Of a stretch of 64,000 bases of DNA, positions 5,568 through 30,241 are shown in pieces (within the stretch, counting starts at the first letter, position 1; every line of letters begins with the position of its first letter). Below the pieces are notes generated by a model. It worked only from the letters and a program-made list of their open reading frames with translations, was not told the origin of the DNA and searched no databases. The stretch spans positions 32,001-96,000 of the IMG/VR virus record IMGVR_UViG_3300036987_000310; one strand, 5' to 3'. The translations under genes and the position numbers were made by a program. This stretch comes from a virus. Lineage: Duplodnaviria; Caudoviricetes.

Positions 5568-6728
5568 ATGAGCTACGATTTCGCTCTGCAAAAGCTGTGC
5601 AGTCATGAGATCCGAATGGAGAACGGTCTATACGATAGGGATACAAGCACAATTAGATTTAGGACGCCACCGTCAAATCAGAACGTGACCGTTTGGGTCG
5701 ATGGCGTGAAAGTTCCGCAGGCCGGATTGTGGTCGTACGCCACGCTAATTTTCACAAATGCAGGTCCTTACAGGATAAAGCGTGGCGAAAATGACTTGCT
5801 CTACATGCAGGTTGGAAATGAGCCGCCCACGTTCGTTCAGCTTTTGACCGGGAACGTGCGGGCTAAGGATATGGTCAAGGATTTGGCTTTGAAGGTGCCG
5901 TCTCTGGTTTTTTCGGTGGAGCGAGAAAGGGTCGTAATCAAGTCAAAAACTCCTTTCCATGGGGCGGCTTTTACTTTTTCAGACCCTAGGTGGACCGATC
6001 GAGCGCAGTCTCTTCCCACCACTGCAAGAGTTTTAGCTGCTTATTCCAGGCTCGGAATTGTTCCGGGGAGAGTTGTGACTGGAAAAATGCTGTTCCCATC
6101 ATGGTCGATAGAAGGAGATGTTTTGTCGACATGGGATAAAGACAGGGTTGTGAAATTTCATAAAAGGATACCGAATCAGGCCCCGGTGACGCATGTGAGC
6201 TATGTCACATACCCTACATATTGTAGACGTTGTGGCGGGACGAAGGTTGAGTTTGACTACAATATAGTTGGAACGACGTACGAGAGAGTCACAGACGCTG
6301 ATCTTTTGTCTCAGGAATTCGACAAGTTTTTGTTCACCAGGCTCGGATCCCATTGGAAATGGACATGGCTCGGGTCCAGACTCATTGATCGCATAGGCGG
6401 GAAGGGGTCAACTGGACAAACGACTGTCAACTCCATGCTGTCAATGGACATTAGCCAAGCTTTCTCCGTATATCAAAACATCAAGATGCAGCAAAGCCAA
6501 AACTCTCCGGAGCAACAGGTTACGGATGCCGAATACCCGTTTTCCGTACGCAACGTCAATGTCAATTTGCTTCCAGACGACCCGACTGTGGCTCTTGTTG
6601 GGATAACGGTTGTGTGTAGGAGCTTGGAGCCCGTGTACCTCAAGAGGGTTGTCGGCAACCCGAATCCTTACACAATAGGTTCCAACCTAAGTTTGGCCAC
6701 CACTCCAGATTTTCTCCTTAGAGGGTGA
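5568..6728 (+). CDS. Baseplate wedge protein, gp25-like C-terminal domain
   Basis: CRRCGG motif followed by a C-terminal alpha/beta segment (QQVTDAEYPFSVRNVNV...VALVGITVVC) resembling gp25-like wedge domains. Immediately upstream of the baseplate J-like gene. Confidence 0.55.
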   Translation: MSYDFALQKLCSHEIRMENGLYDRDTSTIRFRTPPSNQNVTVWVDGVKVPQAGLWSYATLIFTNAGPYRIKRGENDLLYMQVGNEPPTFVQLLTGNVRAKDMVKDLALKVPSLVFSVERERVVIKSKTPFHGAAFTFSDPRWTDRAQSLPTTARVLAAYSRLGIVPGRVVTGKMLFPSWSIEGDVLSTWDKDRVVKFHKRIPNQAPVTHVSYVTYPTYCRRCGGTKVEFDYNIVGTTYERVTDADLLSQEFDKFLFTRLGSHWKWTWLGSRLIDRIGGKGSTGQTTVNSMLSMDISQAFSVYQNIKMQQSQNSPEQQVTDAEYPFSVRNVNVNLLPDDPTVALVGITVVCRSLEPVYLKRVVGNPNPYTIGSNLSLATTPDFLLRG

Positions 6729-6760: not shown

Positions 6761-9700
6761 ATGGCCACTATCCCTAAGCTGAACTATCCGGACGGTTCCG
6801 GAACGACCACCGGTCTCACTATCACTACGAATGTGAGTGAGATGTCGTTTTCTGGAACCGTTGATGCGAACACAGTCGACATTCAAATCGACGTGAACGG
6901 ATCGGGCTTTGTTTCAGACCCGACTCTCGTCGAGATTTCGGCCGGCGTCTTTCGCGTTCCCAATTCATCAAGTTTTCCCGACGGATTTCAGTTTGAACAT
7001 GGAGAAAACTCCATTCGACTGAGGGCTGTCGATCTTAGCGGCGGCGTAAGCCCTCCGGCAGTCATCTCGGTGTCAGTGTTTACCGACGACGAGCTTGGAG
7101 TCACGACGCAGTCTCCTACGGGCGTTGTGGTGAACAGGAGGGCAAAATCCGTCGACATATGCTGGTCTGACGTCATGACTGAAGGGGCCAGCGGATACAA
7201 CATATATGCTGCCACGGGGTCTGGGGGGACGGGGTCCGGGTACCTAAAAGTCAATAAAGACATGATATCCGTCGATTCCCCGACTGTGTCCGAAATATAC
7301 GAAAACCCAGTTGGAAACTTTCAGTATGAACTTCCGGAAGCTGATGGGAGCAGCGATCTTCAAATCGTAACGGACACGACAGACCCCGCGAACGGGGAAG
7401 TCATCGAACGAAAGTCGGTAAACTGGATATCCCTTGTTGGACAGTCTAGATATAAACTGTCTGTGGATGTTGTGGCCACGATTCCCGTGAAACGGTTCGT
7501 TTTCAATCACGACAGAGCCAGAGGCGTAGGCAGCGGGATTATGAACTCCGACGTGTTTGGGACCGTTGGAAATGACGATCCGCTTTTTTACGTTGTAACA
7601 GCTCTGTACTTTGACGTGTCCACAGGGGGTTACCTAGAGAGCAGGTTTTCCCAAGAGCTTTCCGCGGCCCCGCTACCTCTTGATAAAACTGTTCGCGGCA
7701 TCAACATTAGGAACCAGTCAACTGTTGCTCGAGACTATATTGAAGAAGTTCAAAAGGCTGAGCCGGTCTTGTCTTTGATTCCGGGGTCCACTGTCCGAGA
7801 AGTTCACATAGAACCGTTTGCAAACGAAGCTCAAAGGGTGTACTTCCTTCTTGACTTCGTGCACAGAGCGAAATCTTTTACTGCTTTGTTGGCAGTCGAC
7901 GACCCAAACTCCACCGGGACGAGCATTCCGGTGGACAATTCGCAGTATAAGTCAAATCTGAGATCGGCGCTGAACCTTGCTGACAACACAACAACCCAAA
8001 GCTTAATAGATGGAGCTTTCGATTCTCTTGCTCAGAATTTCGGAGTTCCTCGTCAGGGGGCTCGAGCAGCGACGGTGGTGCAAACTTTCTATACGACCAT
8101 TCTCCCCACGCGCGATCTTCTAGTGTCTCAAAATGCGTCCGTTTCGTCATCTATAGACAGCACAGCGCCCAGGTTTGTGTCTCGCGGCGCGGTGTTCATG
8201 TATGCCAATAGAGCTTCTCAGTATTGGAACGTTGAAAAAAGCCGATATGAGGTCAAAGTTGAGATGATTGCAGAGTCCCCGGGGTCTGCTGGGAACGTGT
8301 CAGCAAATGTTTTGGACACTGTTGTCTCAGGCGCCACTGGGCTCAAGACCTTGAACGAACAAGCAGCAAACTTCGGCAGGGACGCTCAAAGTAATCTTGA
8401 GCTTGCTGAGTCTGCCATGCTTGCTTTGACATCTTTGGACACTGGAACTGAAGGAGGATATTATAAGTCTGCGGTGTCCATACCCGGCGTTCTGGAAGTA
8501 AAAATTGTCAAGTCTGGCGACCCGTTTATGATGCGCGACTGGGACCCGGTTCGAGGCAAGCATGTGGGGGGAAAAGTAGACGTTTACGTGAAGGGAACAA
8601 TTGAGAGAACAATTGTTGAAAGCTTCGCGTTCCAGTTCACAATCGCTAAAAATGTTAGGTTTGAGGTTGTTGACGCGACAGCCTTGACGTTCAGAGCCTT
8701 GGACTCGCGATTGACTCCGTCCAATCCGATTCAAGAAATCATGAATAACCCTTCGCAAGATTTGGGGGTCAGGAATCACTCGACAACTCCGACTCAGTCT
8801 TACGATTTGACCGGTGCGATCATCGTCAATTACAACACAATTCAGTTGAACTCCGCCATTCCTCAGCCTGTGACAATGTTTGATGATTTCGTCGAAGGCG
8901 ATTACAGATACCGGAGCAACAACCAGTTCATAGCTAGCGTGCAACCGATTCGGAGGGTTTCTTCTGTCGTTGGGGAGGTGTCGGGAACTCTGGATTCGAC
9001 GCTTGGGTACGACTTGTACAAGACGCAAGATCCGCTTCTCGAGGGAGAAAGCTCGCTGGCCAAGGACTATGTGTCCATAAATCAAGTAGATGGAATTCCT
9101 GCTGGAAACATGGTCCAGGTCAATGATGAGCAGCACGTTTTGATAGGGCAATTTGAAGAGCCGATGGGATCTGTCGGAATAAACTCTCTCACTCTATCCG
9201 TATACAGCCGAGATAGGCTCATCGAGTACCAGGGGCCAAATTCTGCAAATCCAGATTATCTTATTGTCGAAGGAACGCAAACGACGGCTTCGAGGATAGT
9301 TAGGACAGCGCTTTCCAACATAGACAGTGGAGACACTGTTTCCATTGATTACCAGCACGATGAAAACTTTTACGTGACTTATGTTGTGAACGACGTCGTT
9401 CAGCGCGTGGCGTCGGTTGTGTCGAACATGCGTCACGTCACTGCAGATGTTGCTGTTAAACAGTCCTTGGACAACCCTGTGTCTATGGAGACGATAATTC
9501 AACTACTTCCGAATTCAAACCAGTCCACCGTCGATTCAAACGTGAGGACTTCGCTCACGAGGCTCACGGATTTGCGCGGCCTAGGCAATCCGATACATCA
9601 ATCGGACGCCACGGGCGCCATCGAAGCTATTTTTGGCGTCGACTATCTAGTGCAACCTCTTTCCAGGTTCACTCTTCAAACAGGGGCATATCGCATTAGA

Positions 9701-16300: not shown

Positions 16301-19300
16301 TAGCGAAGCTCCGCCAGATTCTGTCGACATACCATGGACAAAGTACGGATCCGCCAGCGTTCAAATGATTGGAGCTGTTCATTCTCCTGTCATGCGCTTG
16401 ACTGATTCGATTGCTACAGAATATGTCACGTTTTCCATGTTGAACCCTATTGTCGTCACTGACGTCATGGAGCCAGCGAACGATTGGAAGCTGGACATCC
16501 GTTTGACAGTTGACAGTTTCACCGCTGGCGACGCCGTTCCCGCCACGATTCCGCTTGTCAATTTGCATTTTGCCGGCGTTTTGGTGAACGTGGACGAAGG
16601 GTACGGGGGAAAAAACATTGAGCTCCATTGTTCAGTGGACGCTTCTGGAAATCCATATTTGAACCTTGTCACTTACAATGCAGGAACAGACACAATAGAC
16701 CCTATCGCTCAGTATTTGTTTTCTTGGAACGATGGGGAAGCTCACAGTTTTAACATATTCACAAACAAGGGAGCTGACCAGCTTTTTGTGTATGCCGATG
16801 GCGCGCAGCTCATCCCAACCGCCGGCATTCCGGCATATTCGTCGTTCGGGACGGCAACTGGGGCGACCCCGTCTGTTTCCTTTGGATCTGGAGCGGAAGC
16901 AGTGTCGAATGTCGACTTGAAGACGGCAGTGTCCACAGTCGACTGGGAATCCGTGGCCGTGTTTAAAGACAGCAAACTGTCTGATCTGACGGCTTCTTCC
17001 AAAAGATATATCGGGATTCACCGTGGCGGAAATCCCGCCTTACTCAGTTCTTGGTATGTCGCGAATGTGGACTGGGCATCATTCCACACATACAGGATAG
17101 TAAGAGACCCAGGAAGTTTCATAGCTGTCTACTTGGATGGAGGAAACACCCCCGTCTTGTCCGTTAGCTATGACCCAATAAGGCTTCCTCCTTGCTCTTC
17201 CAGCTTTTTCAACGAAATAACCAACGATCGGTCCATCGTTGCTTGGGGAACGTTTGACCCCCAGGAAATTAGCAGAACTAGATGGAAATTCGTCAATTAT
17301 TCGATGGGCAAGCTTACTCTGACAGATAGGCTTGTCCCCCCACATCAGGTTTTGAACCAGTCAAACGTGATGGCATCTCCGGATCACGCGAACACTGGGG
17401 TTAAACACAGTCACTTTGGATTCTCCGTGTATTCGGGAGGAACTCCAAACGACGATTTCATGGCTGACTTAAACGTTCCAGCATACACGATTCTTGGCGA
17501 AAGAGTTCCTCCTGTTCCAAAGACTCAAGACTTGGAGTCCAGGGGAGGCCTAGTCAGAAGCGCTGTTCCTGCAATGGACGTTTCCGCAGTGGATTTCATA
17601 AACCAAAAGGGGCTTCTTGGACAATTTGAAAACGACGATGAAAATCTTGTTTCGGTTGAGGACTCCATAAGTCCTACATATGCCGTTTCCGTCGTAGTCG
17701 ACGTGGCGAACGATGCTTCAACAGCGTATGAAAGTCATCGTGTTCGCCATGATGTTGCCGCAAACGTCCACTCCGTGGACGATGTTCTGAATATCATAAC
17801 AACATCAGCTGCTTCCGATCTGCCGACGTCCATTGTCAGACTGATAGATTATAAAGCAGTTTTCAATGCCCACATTGTCGATGCCGTTTCGCACCTTCCA
17901 TCTGACGCGGCGAACATGATTTCGTCTCCAGATCCGACAGACCTAGATTCTTCAATCGTTCTTTCGAACGAGATATCGAGTCGATATGGAAACCACCTTC
18001 TAAAAGGATTTTTTCACTTCATACCGCCTGGCGCTCCATACTTTGACAACTTAGTAACGGTTGCTGACGCCACGGACGCCGCTACATGTTCGACGTTGTT
18101 GAACGACGCCACGGCTGGCATAAAGCAAAGATTTTTGGAACATGTAGCGTCTCTGAACTGGCATGGAAAGACGGCAAACTATTCTGTGACGCTAAACTAT
18201 GGATCCACATCGGTTCCAATTTCTTTCATCATAACTCTGGCAAACCATCTGAAGCGCTTGTTTAATCAACACATGACCACGGATGGCGTTCATGTGTTGA
18301 ACGACTCCGTCAATGTGATCTTGACTAGCGACGCGCACGATGTTGACACAGCGATTGCCCTGACCAATGAGGTTAAAGCTGCGTATAACGCGCACGTTGT
18401 TGGACAGCTTGTGCATTCGATCATTGGAACACAAGACGCATATTATCACGCGCCAATTGCAAACCCGTTACAATCCGTCGTTGAGCTGGCAAACGACATT
18501 TTGACCACATTCAATGCGCACGCAGTGTTTCTTAAGTCCCATGTTGAAAAAGACATAGACAGCCTTGTGAAAGCTCAACCCGCGTATGACACTACGTCCG
18601 CAATTGAACTGGCAAACGTTCTCAAATCTTCGTTCAACGCGCATAGAACTGCAGAACATAGGGGGAGCAAAGTGCACGTTCGCGATGACGTAGTAAACAT
18701 CGTGTCTACTGCCGATGCCACGGACTTGGACACCGCTTCAAGTTTGTTGAATGCTGTGAAGTCAGCGTACGAAAGCCATCGAGAAGAAGTTGGAGTTCAT
18801 GGGTCCGCCGCTTTCATACGCTTGGAAGCGCCTTCCCGAGTTCTATACGAAGGAATGAAATTTTGGACGTCTGAGGACGGTGTCGAAGGCCTTGTGTCTT
18901 CTTTTTCAGACGATGAGACATGGCATATTGACGCAGTCAAAAATCAGTCGGACAAATCGTTGACGTACACCGGGGAAGCTTTGCCAGAACAAGCTGTTCT
19001 TGTTAGCATTTTTGCAGATCCGACAAAAATCGTGGATGGTGACACGCTTGTTCTTGAGATTGATCGAAATCATCCTTCGACAATAACTTTTCAGGCCTCC
19101 GACACGACTCTTTTAGATGTCGTTGACAGAATAAACGCGACAGTGCCATCGTGCGCTTCTGTCGAGGGTTCTGAAATAAGGCTTGAAAGTCCGGCCCCGG
19201 GTCCGACTTCGTCTGTTATTGTGAACAGTGGGACAGCGCTTGAAAAACTAGGTTTTTCAATCCCCCATCACTCTCCTTGGTATATAATTTCAAACAATCC

Positions 19301-25768: not shown

Positions 25769-26437
25769 ATGCCAATTCTTCGTGAAATTTTTAGACACGC
25801 AAAAGACCGAGGGGTCCAGTTTGCTCTTAAAAGCCTCGGGTATGATGAATACTCTCGAGAGAGAATGAGCGGGGAAGTTTTCTGGACTTTGCGCGATTCT
25901 GCGACGGGGAAAGAGACCCGCGGGCATCACAAAAACATTGTGACCCTTGACGCCGGGATTTTGTTGGCGACGTTCATGAAGGGAACGGGAACAGCTGTTG
26001 CGAATCAATGCGTTCCGAGCTTTGGCATATACGCTCTCGGAGTTGGAACTGGCGACGTTTCATGGGACCCCATGAGCCCTCCTCCCGCCACGGTTACGCA
26101 AAGGTCTTTGTATAATGAGTTGGCGAGAAAAGCCGTCGCCATAACCAGCTTCATTGATGAGAACGGGTCCATTTCTGGCGTTAGAACGCACATAGTGGAC
26201 TTCACTACAACTTTTACAGAGTCCGAAGCTGTGGGGGCTCTGACCGAGATGGGCCTTTTGGGTGGCGACATCGACACCAGCATGGCTGTTAGAAACCCAG
26301 TGCTTCCGCCAAATGGATCGTACGATCCAACGGTGGACACGTCTGCAAAGGACATCTTGGTTAACTATGTCACGTTTCCAGCGATAAACAAGCCACCGAC
26401 CAGCACTCTTAGTTGGACATGGAGGATCATTACATGA
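25769..26437 (+). CDS. Baseplate/tail-fibre attachment (collar-like) structural protein
   Basis: HKNIVTLDAG...YALGVGTG...TQRSLYNELARK...FTTTFTESEAVGALTEMGL...NYVTFPAINK...LSWTWRI, typical of myovirus fibre-attachment proteins. SD AGGAG. Confidence 0.65.
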   Translation: MPILREIFRHAKDRGVQFALKSLGYDEYSRERMSGEVFWTLRDSATGKETRGHHKNIVTLDAGILLATFMKGTGTAVANQCVPSFGIYALGVGTGDVSWDPMSPPPATVTQRSLYNELARKAVAITSFIDENGSISGVRTHIVDFTTTFTESEAVGALTEMGLLGGDIDTSMAVRNPVLPPNGSYDPTVDTSAKDILVNYVTFPAINKPPTSTLSWTWRIIT

Positions 26438-26451
26438 TCTGGATTTGAGTC

Positions 26452-26460
26452 TGGTAGAGT
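26452..26460 (+). promoter_or_regulatory. Extended -10 (TGG-TAGAGT), predicted leaderless promoter of the endonuclease
   Basis: The hexamer ends 6 nt before ATG 26467 and no SD lies between them. Confidence 0.5.
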
Positions 26461-26466
26461 TCTTTC

Positions 26467-27441
26467 ATGGACTCTTCCAAACCAATCCGCTACACGATCT
26501 ACTGTCACATCCACATTGAGTCTGGACGCCGCTACGTTGGTTTGACCAAAAAGACCATGATGCAGCGTTGGAATCGGCACATTCAAGCCGCTAACCGCCA
26601 ATTAGGTGGATGGTCCCACTTCGCCAATGCTATTCGTCTTTATGGCAAGGACGCTTTTTCGCACGAAGTGCTTGAAGTGTGCAATTCGGTCGAAGCAGCC
26701 AACGTCGCGGAGCAGAAGTGGATCGAGCACTTCAAGACTCGGGACCCGGAATTTGGCTTCAACTTGACTCCGGGCGGCGCTCACACGCCGCATCTGATCA
26801 AGAACCCGTGGGACCGTCCGGAATTTCGCGAAAAGGCGATGGCAACACTGCCGAAGCTCATCTCGGCTGGCCTGTCTCCCGAAGCTCGAGCCAAGACCGT
26901 TGCGACTCTTCGGACTCCAGAATTCCGTCAAAAGGCGGCCGAGCTGACGAGGAAGCAATTTTCTTCCCCCGAGTCTCGTCAGAAGATGTCCGAGACTGTT
27001 AAAGCTCTCCATCAGATTCCGGAGATTGCGGAAAAATTCGCGTCGGGGTTCCGCAAGACCAATGCCGAACGCGCGTCCAAGACCCGTTGCAAGCACGGTC
27101 ACGAGTTCACCCCGGAGAACACGCGAACGGACGAGAACGGATGGCGTTATTGCAAGCGGTGCGCGGCCGACCGCGCCGCCAAGAAAGCTCGCGAAGAGCG
27201 CACGCGCTGCGCAGGCGGCCATGAGTTCGTCGAGGGTAGCTTCAAGCTCAGCTGCAGCGGCGAGCGTGTCTGTCTGCTGTGTGTCCAAACGCATTGTAAG
27301 CGCGGCCACGAGCTGTCGCCAGAGAACACCTACCTGAACAACCGCGGCAGCCGCGTGTGCAAGCTCTGCGAGCGCATTCGCGGCCGGCAGTCCGACGCCC
27401 GCAGGAGAAATCGGCGGAAGGCGAGCCAAGCAAAAGGCTAG
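26467..27441 (+). mobile_element. Free-standing GIY-YIG homing endonuclease with C-terminal Cys/His zinc-binding repeats
   Basis: YTIY...RRYVGLT...QRWNRH, E in NVAEQKWI and N in GFNLT form the GIY-YIG core. Three CKxGHEF-type repeats follow. The 3' half is GC-richer than the flanks (42/60 at 27121-27180 vs 28/60 at 25801-25860). Confidence 0.85.
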
Positions 27442-27592
27442 CTCTCTGAGCGATAGCCCATGAACTCGTACACCTTGAACCACCCGTAAGGACAGCCTTT
27501 GTGGAAGTCATTTCGCGAGATTCTCACCTTGAAGGATCTCGCAAGTTGAAAGTGATATAGCCCGATTCGTATGTTGACCAGTAGGTCGCTCA

Positions 27593-27691
27593 TTGCTTAT
27601 ACGCCATTTCTCTTGTCAAGTTACACCTGGTATTGTTCATTGCTCCTTCCAGCCTCTTATTGAAATGGCATGAGAAATGGCGTATAAGCAA
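27593..27691. repeat. Perfect 20-bp inverted repeat covering the start codon of the 27677 gene
   Basis: ttgcttatacgccatttctc (27593-27612) is the exact reverse complement of gagaaatggcgtataagcaa (27672-27691); 59-nt loop. Confidence 0.95.
27654..27662 (+). promoter_or_regulatory. Candidate late-promoter motif CTCTTATTG inside the inverted-repeat loop
   Basis: TATTG at 27658-27662 lies 14 nt before the ATG, matching the TAWTG motif seen before other virion genes. Confidence 0.4.
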
Positions 27692-30241
27692 CTCGGCCCA
27701 AACGTAAGCCAACTTCCACAAACCGTTTCGCCGGGCGGCGGTTCTTTCACAGCCGAGGATCATTCCTGGGAGTGTCTTGTTTTTCAGCACAACAGGCCAG
27801 TCATGGACTGGGAAATGAACCTGAAAAATGAGATTGACGGGGCGTATGGCTTAGGACAACATGTTCGAAAAACGTTGTCTTCCGGTTTTCTCAATGGAGA
27901 TTTTTACGAGTCTGGAAGCGTCGGGAACTCCTTCTCGTTCTTGACTCCGACCGCAGGCAATGAGAACAGTTTTTTGATTGCGGCGTCTGACATTGTCGTC
28001 AATGGTTGGAGCATTCGATTCGAGTATTCGGACACGTCGACTGACGGTTGGAATCAGATACTCCTTCCTGTTCCGCCGGCATCTGGAACGGACACGAATG
28101 TGGTGATTCTAGAAGTTTGGCGGGCCCTCGTGGTGGCCGGAACCACTGACAACAAGAGCCTTTCCGGACAAATTTTGCGCTTCGGAAACGCCAAAGCTCC
28201 GGACTCCGGAACAAACAGAAACCTGGCCGACGATCTCACAGACGTCACATACTTGCAAGAGACACAGGCCAGAATTCAAATTCAGTACAGGTATAGAGTT
28301 GTTCCTGCGTGGGATCTGAGCACGTACCCGGAAGCTCCAGACCAAATCGTTGCCAACACGGTTCCATATCTCAGCGCTTCGGACGTTGACGGCGCTGCTT
28401 CAGCATATTCCTACGATCGGGTTGACGGGGACTCGGGGCTGTGGCGTGCAGGAAATGGGGACCTTGCCTCTACAATAGCTTTGGGGACCGTGGACGGGTA
28501 CATTTATGCCGTGCCTTTGTGTGCTGTTTTTAGGCGAAATTCCACGGCTTTCGATCGTGCCACCAACTTGAACGGCGCTGCTTTGATTGCCGCGGGAGTT
28601 TCAGACAGGCCAGACGGCTTTTTCTCCGACCAGATTGTTGCCGCTGATGTGCAAGATATGAGAAAAGGAATGTCCGCGGATTTCCAAGAAGTTCTTGCTA
28701 GAAATTTCCAGTATCTGATGCAGAACGAGCTCGGAACTGAGCATGAGACAACCGCAGACGATTGCTCCGGAACAACAATTTTCGCACGAGATTCCCTTGG
28801 AAGCGGGGATAGGCAGCCAGATGCAGTCAGGGTGTACTTTAGCGACCGCGCTGTCACGGAAACTGTTGTTTGCAGCGTAGACCTCACTGTCGCTCCATTT
28901 ACGCAATGTGACATAGACGCCACAGCCGTTCCAGTGATTTGGTATGGAGACGTTGACATAACGTCCCTGGCCCCTGTTGGAACCTCCATCCTGGAAGTCA
29001 GAAAAGTTCGCATTCGCATCAGCGACATCAGCGAAGAAGTGGACGGGCTCGATAACACAAATGGAAAAATCTATGTGGACAACATAGACCTGACGGCCAG
29101 CCACGTCACTTTGTATTTGCAAGAAGACGTGTCATATGCTGGTCCTCTTGAAGTCTTGGTGGAGCTTGCGATCGGATACCCCAGCGGATGCGGTCTAGAT
29201 CGGACTCCAAACGGATCTGTGGCTTTGTGGATGCCGACGGGGGCGTCGGCGTGGATAGACCCGGCTTTGGCTTCGGGTACTTCGGACGCCACAAGAAACA
29301 GTGTCGATTCGACTTTGTGGTCAATTGACAACGCCCATAGGGAAATTCGCGCGACGTTGAAGCAAACGTCCGACACTGTTTCCCTGTATGCTTCGCCAAC
29401 TGGCGACTATGTCATGCTCCCCCAAAGGCTTGATGGGTCCCAAGTTGACATAGACGATGGAATCAATCCTCCGTACTCCACCACGAACTACATGGTGGAC
29501 ACCGCATATACTCGCATTGAACTAAGCTTTGTTGTTGCCGCCAACACTTCCGTTGACGTCACTTATAATGCCACAATTCCGATTCCGCCAATTCCGGTCG
29601 CCCCGGACTCCACGTACGAAGTTTTTTACCAGTCCAAGGCTGTTCAATCCATCGCTGTTCCCGCTGGGTCCAATTACATAAAGCTTCGATTGCGCGCGAT
29701 GCCTTCTTTTTTGACGGTTTCAACCGCTGGTTCCGCCAGCCCGGACGATTTGACCTGGCCTTCCATGACCGGATTTAGTCAAATTCCAATGTCTGACTTG
29801 AGTTCAGATAGCGCCGTTAACTCGTCTCTAGAGGTGCAGCTTCCATCTTCGAGCCCCATAGCCAGTGGAGTTGCTGATCTTTCGTTGAAATTTTCGTATC
29901 TTCAAAATGGCGAAGTGATCCTGGTAAATCTTGGAGACGCGACGCAGGACGCTGACGGGAGACACTTTTGGCCACGCACAAATTATGACGGGGTGTCGTT
30001 TTACGGATACCCAGATTTGACGTCCGATGTTCTTCGTCGCACTTTGTTTCCTGTTCTCATGGAAGTTGTTTCGACGGATACAAACATGGTCAGACCCGGA
30101 ACCCTTGTTCTGGCAGTGTTCACATCGTTCGATTTTGGGTCTCAGCCCGTCGTGTCGTTGTCCACGTCCACGGGGTCTGGATGCGCTGCTCTATATAGGG
30201 TTCGAGGCAATCTGACGAACCCTAGGAGACTCACTCCATGA
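27677..30241 (+). CDS. Virion structural protein, paralog of 30957-35645
   Basis: Shares LEVW, RFGN, RIQIQYRxRVV, GLWRAG, GTVDGYxYAxPLCAVFRRN and RPDG motifs with the downstream 1562-aa protein. Confidence 0.7.
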   Translation: MAYKQLGPNVSQLPQTVSPGGGSFTAEDHSWECLVFQHNRPVMDWEMNLKNEIDGAYGLGQHVRKTLSSGFLNGDFYESGSVGNSFSFLTPTAGNENSFLIAASDIVVNGWSIRFEYSDTSTDGWNQILLPVPPASGTDTNVVILEVWRALVVAGTTDNKSLSGQILRFGNAKAPDSGTNRNLADDLTDVTYLQETQARIQIQYRYRVVPAWDLSTYPEAPDQIVANTVPYLSASDVDGAASAYSYDRVDGDSGLWRAGNGDLASTIALGTVDGYIYAVPLCAVFRRNSTAFDRATNLNGAALIAAGVSDRPDGFFSDQIVAADVQDMRKGMSADFQEVLARNFQYLMQNELGTEHETTADDCSGTTIFARDSLGSGDRQPDAVRVYFSDRAVTETVVCSVDLTVAPFTQCDIDATAVPVIWYGDVDITSLAPVGTSILEVRKVRIRISDISEEVDGLDNTNGKIYVDNIDLTASHVTLYLQEDVSYAGPLEVLVELAIGYPSGCGLDRTPNGSVALWMPTGASAWIDPALASGTSDATRNSVDSTLWSIDNAHREIRATLKQTSDTVSLYASPTGDYVMLPQRLDGSQVDIDDGINPPYSTTNYMVDTAYTRIELSFVVAANTSVDVTYNATIPIPPIPVAPDSTYEVFYQSKAVQSIAVPAGSNYIKLRLRAMPSFLTVSTAGSASPDDLTWPSMTGFSQIPMSDLSSDSAVNSSLEVQLPSSSPIASGVADLSLKFSYLQNGEVILVNLGDATQDADGRHFWPRTNYDGVSFYGYPDLTSDVLRRTLFPVLMEVVSTDTNMVRPGTLVLAVFTSFDFGSQPVVSLSTSTGSGCAALYRVRGNLTNPRRLTP

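Follow-up and report, generated by a model that had tools for sequence, protein, structure and literature searches.

Just upstream of an 854-aa, virion or tail-fibre-like gene of an uncultured jumbo phage (27677..30241, + strand), the gene's own 26-nt translation start region occurs a second time in inverted orientation, very probably as the product of a young duplication. RNA that reads through both copies is predicted to bury the start of the gene in a long stem, and a mechanism in which this stem acts as a T4-type mask on read-through RNA is plausible by analogy. Comparison with related genomes does not support the repeat as an adaptation to the GIY-YIG homing endonuclease encoded nearby. 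The window, i.e. the whole stretch of 64,000 nucleotides analysed here, comprises bases 32001–96000 of a virus record of 376,674 bp with direct terminal repeats and a genome GC content of 51%; positions refer to the window unless given as genome positions. Public runs containing the stretch are groundwater, coal and soil metagenomes, with no RNA run listed among them, and the repeat locus belongs to a long series of very large virion genes on the + strand.

As claimed in an earlier note on this DNA, the inverted repeat is perfect over 20 bp, with 27593–27612 being the exact reverse complement of 27672–27691, and its 3′ arm has the makeup described there, namely the five nucleotides GAGAA followed by ATG GCG TAT AAG CAA of the 854-aa ORF. 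A repeat finder lengthens the repeat to 26 nt with 92% complementarity (27593–27618 / 27666–27691). The 5′ arm (27593..27618, perfect over 27593–27612) is an inverted copy of −11..+15 of the 854-aa gene, while the 3′ arm (27666..27691, + strand) holds a weak Shine–Dalgarno-like GAGAA, the ATG and the first five codons, spanning −5..+15 in its perfect and −11..+15 in its extended form. The perfect arms enclose a loop of 59 nt (47–59 nt counting the extended arms). By our own arithmetic, a perfect local inverted repeat of 20 bp is expected by chance ~5e-5 times per 377 kb, and on this reckoning the repeat is not a chance match. It ranks fourth in length among the perfect inverted repeats of the genome, the other long ones being mostly intergenic and terminator-like, with loops of 4–19 nt.

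The origin of the 5′ arm is indicated by an arm identity of 20/20 (24/26 over the extended arms) and by the outgroup L005, which has homologous flanks and shares a minus-strand 51-aa gene and the loop with the window, without the 5′ arm between them. Because two mismatches on the loop side are common to the window and its relative L004, the duplication must be older than the split between these two. Since that split, we estimate a neutral expectation of ~0.7–1 substitution in the 5′ arm, and on this estimate the perfect arms of the window are unsurprising under neutrality. Template switching, including that during break repair, is reported to create and homogenise inverted repeats (PMC8604942, PMC7202029, bioRxiv 10.1101/2023.08.09.552703). 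The locus resembles template-switch quasipalindromes, as portrayed in two of these reports (PMC8604942, PMC7202029), in being an exact inverted copy of nearby sequence that is missing in outgroups with homologous flanks, and in lying at a site prone to breaks and cassette exchange; unlike them, the copy here lands on two start codons, suggesting filtering by selection.

Relatives were gathered by a search with the 854-aa protein and contig look-ups, plus a DNA pattern on the conserved leader; one contig retrieved with the latter (L014) was discarded as a chance match. Pattern-based locus searches with the 854-aa protein found none in viral or metagenome contigs, and a DNA search of a phage collection gave zero matches, while a protein search returned distant jumbo-phage matches only. 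The 854-aa protein itself has 236 homologs, mostly of 845–900 aa, and gives a weak tblastn match to an annotated tail fiber gene of Tunturiibacter phage Tunturi_5.

Across the relatives, different cassettes occupy the slot that separates a 222-aa gene from the 854-aa gene, which makes it a hotspot. Found there are a GIY-YIG gene and the 51-aa gene in the window and in L005, a GIY-YIG gene and a minus-strand operon of NDK and then the 51-aa gene in L010, NDK alone in L012, a Mom/GNAT-like gene of 629 or 556 aa in L004 and L008, six small genes in L006 and L007, and other content in one further contig. The window's own genome has an NDK gene outside this slot, at genome positions 152863–153246, comparison with which was uninformative.

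The 5′ arm is limited to three places: the window, with an identical contig in run X4; a soil strain in runs X5 and X7; and, in decayed form, L004. The soil strain differs from the window at 3 of 684 bases, and its DNA from 26423 to 27416 is unlike that of the window (breakpoints at 26422 and 27417), with the repeat retained. Its sole arm change, 27602 C>T, turns the pair in the + strand RNA into G-U and does not alter the peptide of a minus-strand upstream ORF (uORF) formed by the arm; an AG insertion follows 27618. L004, at 92% aa identity, carries a Mom-like gene in the slot and a decayed repeat, whose arms have suffered a 3-nt deletion and two mismatches, so that 10 perfect pairs over GAGAAAUGGC and 6 more remain, and whose RNA folds with a z-score of −2.2. 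In six more distant relatives (L005, L006, L008, L009, L010 and L012) the 5′ arm is missing, and the structure is thus kept among related phages in a narrow clade only.

This distribution bears directly on the earlier proposal that the hairpin is an accommodation switch, i.e. that it evolved upon insertion of the endonuclease and mutes early transcripts leaving it. The endonuclease is indeed a neighbour of the 854-aa gene on the same strand, T4 does offer a genuine precedent for hairpins that control genes around homing endonucleases, and L004 contains a short remnant that by eye resembles the 3′ end of a GIY-YIG gene, so that its ancestor may have had the endonuclease. However, in L005 and L010 an ortholog of the GIY-YIG gene, at 73% and 65% aa identity, occupies this slot together with the 51-aa gene, and neither genome has the 5′ arm or the hairpin, while the arm persists beside other cassettes, namely the Mom-like gene in L004 and other DNA in the X5/X7 strain. 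On this evidence, accommodation of the endonuclease is not supported. A further GIY-YIG copy of the genome (copy B, genome positions 18046–19089) has its next gene 26 nt off with no comparable hairpin there, a conserved opposite-strand gene lies between endonuclease and repeat, and the endonuclease copies have a start-codon hairpin of their own instead. Taken together, an accommodation switch appears very unlikely, and the link between endonuclease and hairpin can be dropped irrespective of whether the repeat is a mask or a scar.

What stands of the claim that a hairpin hides the start codon of the 854-aa gene is the predicted folding of the long RNA. The RNA of 27585–27700 folds at −44.5 kcal/mol, compared with −21.6 ± 3.0 kcal/mol for shuffled sequences (z −7.5), and 0/200 shuffles are as good. 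The stem includes the AUG region: over −8..+12 of the gene, bases of a −150 transcript are unpaired with a mean probability of 0.05 in either the window or the X5-type strain, a value that rises to 0.51–0.62 in window transcripts starting inside the loop. For −150 transcripts of the other genomes it amounts to 0.29 in L004 and 0.35–0.56 in the remaining relatives, and for starts at −35 or −10 to 0.45–0.65 in all genomes compared. By upstream-dependent start masking, the 854-aa gene ranks 1/412 genes, in a ranking that is a continuum with the next genes scoring 0.10 and 0.12. On the + strand between the stop of the endonuclease and the repeat, a simple scan detects no terminator-like site; an Rfam search gave two sub-threshold chance hits only.

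In the corresponding model, + strand RNA from a local rightward promoter in the loop would contain the 3′ arm only and be translatable, while + strand RNA entering from the upstream virion genes or from the endonuclease would contain both arms and form a stem of about −44 kcal/mol. This stem would bury GAGAA, the AUG and five codons and thereby leave the 854-aa gene untranslated from read-through RNA. In the opposite direction, the leftward mRNA would gain a 5-codon uORF with the start region of the virion gene, stop–start coupled (ATGA) to the 51-aa gene. As locally started RNAs would have one arm each, the stem could not form in them. The promoters, the read-through and the effect on translation are the parts of this model that we infer, and the proposition that a cis mask of the T4 e/soc/I-TevI type operates in vivo is one we hold tentatively, at slightly less than an even chance.

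Start-masking hairpins are known from the T4 genes e, soc, 49 and I-TevI, as well as from segB and from mobE of Aeh1 (PMC3014915, PMC2988022), and the precedent of e, soc and I-TevI cited in the earlier note is borne out by these papers. The locus shares with the T4-type masks a stem that takes in both the AUG and the ribosome-binding region, a 5′ strand preceding a candidate promoter, which would restrict folding to RNAs initiated further upstream, and the setting of a late, virion-type gene next to a homing endonuclease. In contrast to them, the stem is a perfect 20–26-bp duplication rather than a short evolved stem, its 47–59-nt loop contains two divergent promoter-like motifs, and its 5′ arm doubles as the leader, predicted to be translated, of a gene on the opposite strand; moreover, the repeat is confined to a narrow clade.

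Several points weigh against the mask. The six distant relatives without the repeat evidently manage without it, and in L004 it is decaying, as the deletion, the mismatches and the modest z-score attest. At 20–26 bp, the perfect duplex far exceeds evolved regulatory stems in length and has the look of a recent duplication, and RNase III would also accept it as a substrate. Since the 854-aa gene is itself late, and transcripts running in from the virion genes upstream would be too, the benefit of a mask is questionable. Finally, both the synonymous change at 27602 and the in-frame deletion in L004 suit an explanation built on the minus-strand uORF equally well or better.

That explanation starts from a gene overlooked in the earlier note. 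Placed between the endonuclease and the repeat and abutting the 5′ arm, a conserved 51-aa ORF (27593..27438, − strand) is in convergent orientation to the endonuclease and in divergent orientation to the 854-aa gene. Its length is identical in the window, L004, L005 and L010, third codon positions account for 21/33, 22/36 and 32/49 of the differences between copies, synonymous changes outnumber non-synonymous ones, and all + strand frames across it are closed; because of this combination, the ORF is a real gene. Its protein has zero matches in Pfam, PHROG and Atlas, the AlphaFold2 model (pLDDT 57) is too poor for a structure search, and there is no second copy of the gene in the genome. With the 51-aa gene on the minus strand, 27594–27676 separates two divergent genes and does not belong to the end of the endonuclease unit.

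The 51-aa gene has no Shine–Dalgarno sequence. Read on the minus strand, the 5′ arm constitutes the leader of this gene, with its outer end falling exactly on the A of the 51-aa ATG, and forms a 5-codon uORF, MAYKQ* (27589..27606, − strand), the TGA of which overlaps the 51-aa ATG (ATGA). The uORF is retained as MAYKQ*, with the synonymous change, in the X5-type strain, and as MAKQ* in L004 after the in-frame 3-nt deletion, with ATGA intact. In every context examined, some upstream ORF stops ≤4 nt from the 51-aa start, be it NDK as in L010 and one more contig or a 4-codon ATGA uORF as in L005, and ATGA gene overlaps are frequent in this genome. A 5-codon ORF with an ATGA overlap to the next gene is reminiscent of stop–start coupling and short uORF leaders in phage operons; what sets the present case apart is that the uORF is a copy of another gene's start region and five codons.

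The 5′ arm may thus have been selected on the minus strand, as a donated start region, with the hairpin as a by-product. After loss of the NDK gene found ahead of the 51-aa gene in relatives, the copied virion start would have supplied a translated uORF, and termination at ATGA would restart ribosomes on the 51-aa gene. The invariance of TGAGAAATGGC down to 53% aa identity suggests a functional start region worth copying, and the exact fit of the arm's outer end, the survival of the uORF in both other carriers, the proximity of an upstream stop in all contexts, the prevalence of ATGA overlaps and a promoter-like GTGTAA motif 14 nt ahead of the uORF ATG all agree with such a donation. Yet, by our own estimate the uORF of L005 has a ~1-in-3 chance of occurring at random, a deletion is in frame with the same 1-in-3 chance, and ~12 nt rather than 26 would suffice. 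We consider a donated start possible but doubtful; it is compatible with the mask, as the two could hold together.

The loop and the 3′ arm are the only sequence upstream of the 854-aa gene that is conserved in the eight relatives. Both CCTCTTAT (at ~−24) and TGAGAAATGGC (at the start) are invariant in 8/8 relatives regardless of upstream content, and GGTATTGT at ~−48 is retained in four genomes, window included. The conserved block upstream of the 854-aa gene (27629..27662, + strand) reads GGTATTGT, N17, CCTCTTATTG, the last of which holds TATTG at −19. The candidate late motif of the earlier note, CTCTTATTG, does lie within the loop at 27654–27662, but as a late motif used across the genome the word CCTCTTAT was rejected for lack of recurrence, with 2 copies in the genome and, at ≤1 mismatch, 7 observed vs 3.7 expected occurrences in upstream regions. 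The most enriched 5-mer at −17..−28 of genes is TAATG (10 observed, 1.08 expected, p 2e-7), including that of several large virion genes, and the TATTG at −19 of the 854-aa gene is a one-off variant of it.

Facing the uORF and the 51-aa gene is the GTGTAA motif (27621..27626, − strand), which is found in 12 upstream regions vs 2.0 expected, five of these at 14–15 nt from the start codon. At the loop site it is present in the window, X5/X7 and L004, and by eye in L010 and L008. GGTATTGT, facing right, directly adjoins GTGTAA, placing two promoter-like motifs back to back within a region of ~80 bp. NDK and the homolog of the 854-aa gene are 78–79 nt apart in L010 and L012, and as this spacer aligns entirely with loop and 3′ arm, both promoters would have to lie inside it there. 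A sigma-70-like site, TTGAAA-N18-TATGTT (27546..27575, + strand), is found shortly before the 5′ arm in the antisense strand of the 51-aa gene, where the scan expects 0.6 sites and finds 1; L004 has TTGAAA-N18-TATATT at this place, and L005 and L010 have CTGAAA...GGATGT. Two other candidates were rejected, namely the minus-strand TTGACA at 27618–27613 as a −35 (by eye, no −10 at 16–18 nt) and GCGTAT in the arms as a copy of a CGCGTAT-type promoter (lost in L004/L005, no matching −35).

A third explanation dispenses with function altogether: the repeat could be a neutral scar, left at a recombination hotspot when a template was switched or a double-strand break repaired, perhaps following endonuclease cuts, and too young in the window for decay. 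Its confinement to one narrow clade fits well, as does its decay with distance, the arms being perfect in the window, altered by a single transition in X5/X7 and by a deletion plus two mismatches in L004, and so does the slot as a cassette hotspot, in which strains 3/684 bases apart are separated by breakpoints at 26422 and 27417; template switching is reported to make inverted repeats (PMC8604942, PMC7202029, bioRxiv 10.1101/2023.08.09.552703). What a scar explains less readily is the striking placement of a copy whose source is exactly one start region and which ends exactly on the start codon of another gene, and that the core surviving in L004 is the part over the AUG. In addition, one history of the pair 27602:27682, from A-U via G-U (X5/X7) to G-C (window), needs 2 changes vs 3 for the alternative and would be a classic compensatory path, which, with three genomes, is only suggestive. 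We regard a neutral scar as a real possibility, if not a probable one. By sequence alone, the mask, the donated start and the neutral scar cannot be separated.

The mask and the minus-strand leader might also have been selected jointly, as an insulator for the hotspot with double use: the stem would tie translation of the 854-aa gene to its own promoter, while the leader on the minus strand couples the 51-aa gene. Translation of the 854-aa gene would then be indifferent to the cassette in the slot, be it GIY-YIG, Mom-like or other, all of which occur inside the narrow clade, and the compensatory change at 27602:27682 would reflect selection on the RNA stem. We consider such a selected double use improbable.

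If the mask works, the start-hiding trick of T4 can arise in one step, by backward copying of a gene's own start region, and would extend to an uncultured jumbo-phage lineage far from T4; an arm that is both antisense mask and translated leader would, if true, be a compact example of the evolution of divergent promoters by a mobile-gene hotspot. If the repeat is only a scar, it still offers a dated case of duplication by template switching next to the slot of a homing endonuclease, as well as a caution against taking perfect hairpins for regulators.

Two further roles for the stem are less probable still. As RNase III substrates are duplexes of about two helical turns, the 20–26-bp duplex, at roughly this length, would be compatible with cleavage by the host enzyme; alternatively, it might stall or terminate polymerase, in either case separating the upstream unit from that of the 854-aa gene, and the other long perfect repeats of the genome are mostly intergenic and terminator-like. 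However, the stem lacks a trailing U-run and is not called as a terminator by the simple scan, the loop of 47–59 nt contrasts with the 4–19 nt of the other long hairpins, and cleavage within the 3′ arm would cost the message its first codons. Processing or termination hence seems quite unlikely. Acting on the DNA level, the arms could bound a promoter segment that inverts, or form a two-fold operator recognised by a DNA-binding protein, given that promoter-like motifs occur on either strand of the segment between them. As both arms have the same start region, inversion would swap the promoters and leave each gene's start unchanged. Still, a single loop orientation is seen in the window, L004, the X4/X5/X7 contigs and all relatives, and contigs of four runs show no strand-switch joints, bearing in mind that contigs drop rare forms; besides, a segment of 47–59 bp is very short for recombinase synapsis. 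A role of this kind is the least likely of those considered and can almost be set aside.

The endonuclease of the slot is encoded by a free-standing 324-aa gene (26467..27441, + strand). Matches to Pfam PF01541 (E 2.7e-8) and to the homing endonucleases of PHROG 314 (E 3e-25), with C-terminal repeats matching PHROG 314, 1492 and 826, identify its product as a GIY-YIG homing endonuclease. The gene has a low codon-usage score. GIY-YIG copies are present at four genome positions, 5834 (a fossil), 18046, 58467 and 358003, and both these several copies per genome and a patchy occurrence between conserved neighbours in the relatives are in line with a free-standing gene.

The extended −10 attributed to this gene in the earlier note is there as letters, TGGTAGAGT-N6-ATG preceding the 324-aa ORF, but TGGTAGAGT is the 5′ arm of a hairpin around the AUG and need not be a −10. 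This hairpin over the endonuclease's own start codon (26452..26479, + strand) uses as its 5′ arm TGGTAGAGTTC, the sequence formerly taken for the promoter element. All four GIY-YIG copies are preceded by a GGTAGAGT-N5/6-ATG leader, and these leaders pair with codons 1–5, enclosing the AUG, at −15.6 to −33 kcal/mol across the four. A start-codon hairpin is no worse an account of the 'extended −10' than a promoter would be, and this type of control is known from segB, mobE and I-TevI (PMC2988022). By likeness to the start-codon hairpins of segB and Aeh1 mobE, the structures at all four copies here would regulate the endonuclease, not its neighbour, and the one in the window is separate from the repeat at the 854-aa gene. 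The GIY-YIG gene in loose ends of the X4, X5 and X7 contigs is paralog D (genome position 358003), the upstream flank of which resembles the leader of a 1770-aa gene.

The slot that the GIY-YIG homing endonuclease occupies in the window (26423-27416), together with its equivalents in the relatives' contigs L004-L012, lies between two virion genes, of 222 aa and 854 aa, and is a hotspot at which cassettes are exchanged. Among the genomes, its occupants are GIY-YIG, NDK, series of small genes or a Mom/GNAT-like gene whose PHROG matches also include HNH and homing-endonuclease families; strains just 0.5% apart already differ in this respect. The phage also has its own NDK homolog away from the slot, within a minus-strand operon at 152863-153246 (minus strand) of its whole genome, G000; this homolog and the slot NDK of L010 are 57% identical.

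Next to the slot lies a conserved 51-aa gene (27438-27593, minus strand), always oriented convergently to the cassette and divergently to the 854-aa gene. Two contigs, L010 and one more, have it as the second gene of a minus-strand NDK operon. Family searches with the 51-aa protein (Pfam, PHROG, Atlas) returned no match, and its AlphaFold2 model has a pLDDT of 57.

Directly upstream of the 5′ arm of the 20-bp inverted repeat, synonymous codons of the 51-aa gene make up a sigma-70-like site, TTGAAA-N18-TATGTT (27546-27575, plus strand). The sister contig with the decayed repeat, L004, carries a better version (TATATT), and the site is absent from L005 and L010, both of which also lack the repeat. 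A 2-nt loop deletion, present in the window alone, opens a longer minus-strand uORF of 16 codons. Copies of the direct repeat AAATGGC lie 12 nt apart (27662-27683), creating a window-specific mini-ORF, ATG GCA TGA (27665-27673), just 5′ of the 854-aa start.

The GIY-YIG genes have start-codon hairpins of their own. All copies in the genome carry the leader GGTAGAGT-N5/6-ATG, which folds as a hairpin across each copy's own AUG (window 26452-26479; G000 5814-5851, 18030-18059 and ~357990-358015), with a stem of as many as 19 bp in the fossil. These own-AUG hairpins match the T4 segB/mobE-type arrangement. A 22-nt element, GA(A/G)TATTGGTTTCGCTCGGTAG, is found ahead of both the 1770-aa virion gene (G000 ~29150-29172) and GIY-YIG copy D (~357968-357990); copy D may have landed behind a copied virion-gene leader.

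This phage may make wider use of start masking. The three genes that follow the 854-aa gene in strength of start masking (G000 170352-170825, minus; 146516-147034, plus; 174690-174986, minus) have their masking sequence 30-150 nt upstream of the start, whose accessibility is 0.10-0.16 in the long RNA versus 0.52-0.57 in the short RNA. A second long perfect inverted repeat over a start codon lies outside the window (G000 120977-120995/121062-121080; 19 bp, 66-nt loop), its 5′ arm starting at the TG of an 89-aa ORF's ATG and its 3′ arm lying within the same ORF.

At 17-28 nt ahead of start codons, TAATG (or TATTG) is the top enriched 5-mer (10 observed versus 1.08 expected). Its sites include window 11006, 27658, 30930 and 35643 and G000 156391; several stand ahead of very large virion genes, and the motif is a candidate late-promoter core. 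GTGTAA(A/T)-N8-ATG without a Shine-Dalgarno sequence (e.g. G000 6764-6809, 108200-108407, 272280-272575 and 329454-329559) may represent a promoter class yielding leaderless or near-leaderless mRNAs. Another promoter-like class, comprising (T/C)CGGA, ~16-17 nt and CGCGTAT or GAGTATT, stands 6-9 nt ahead of a GGAGGTGA Shine-Dalgarno sequence and is restricted to one GC-rich region outside the window (G000 ~217-254 kb).
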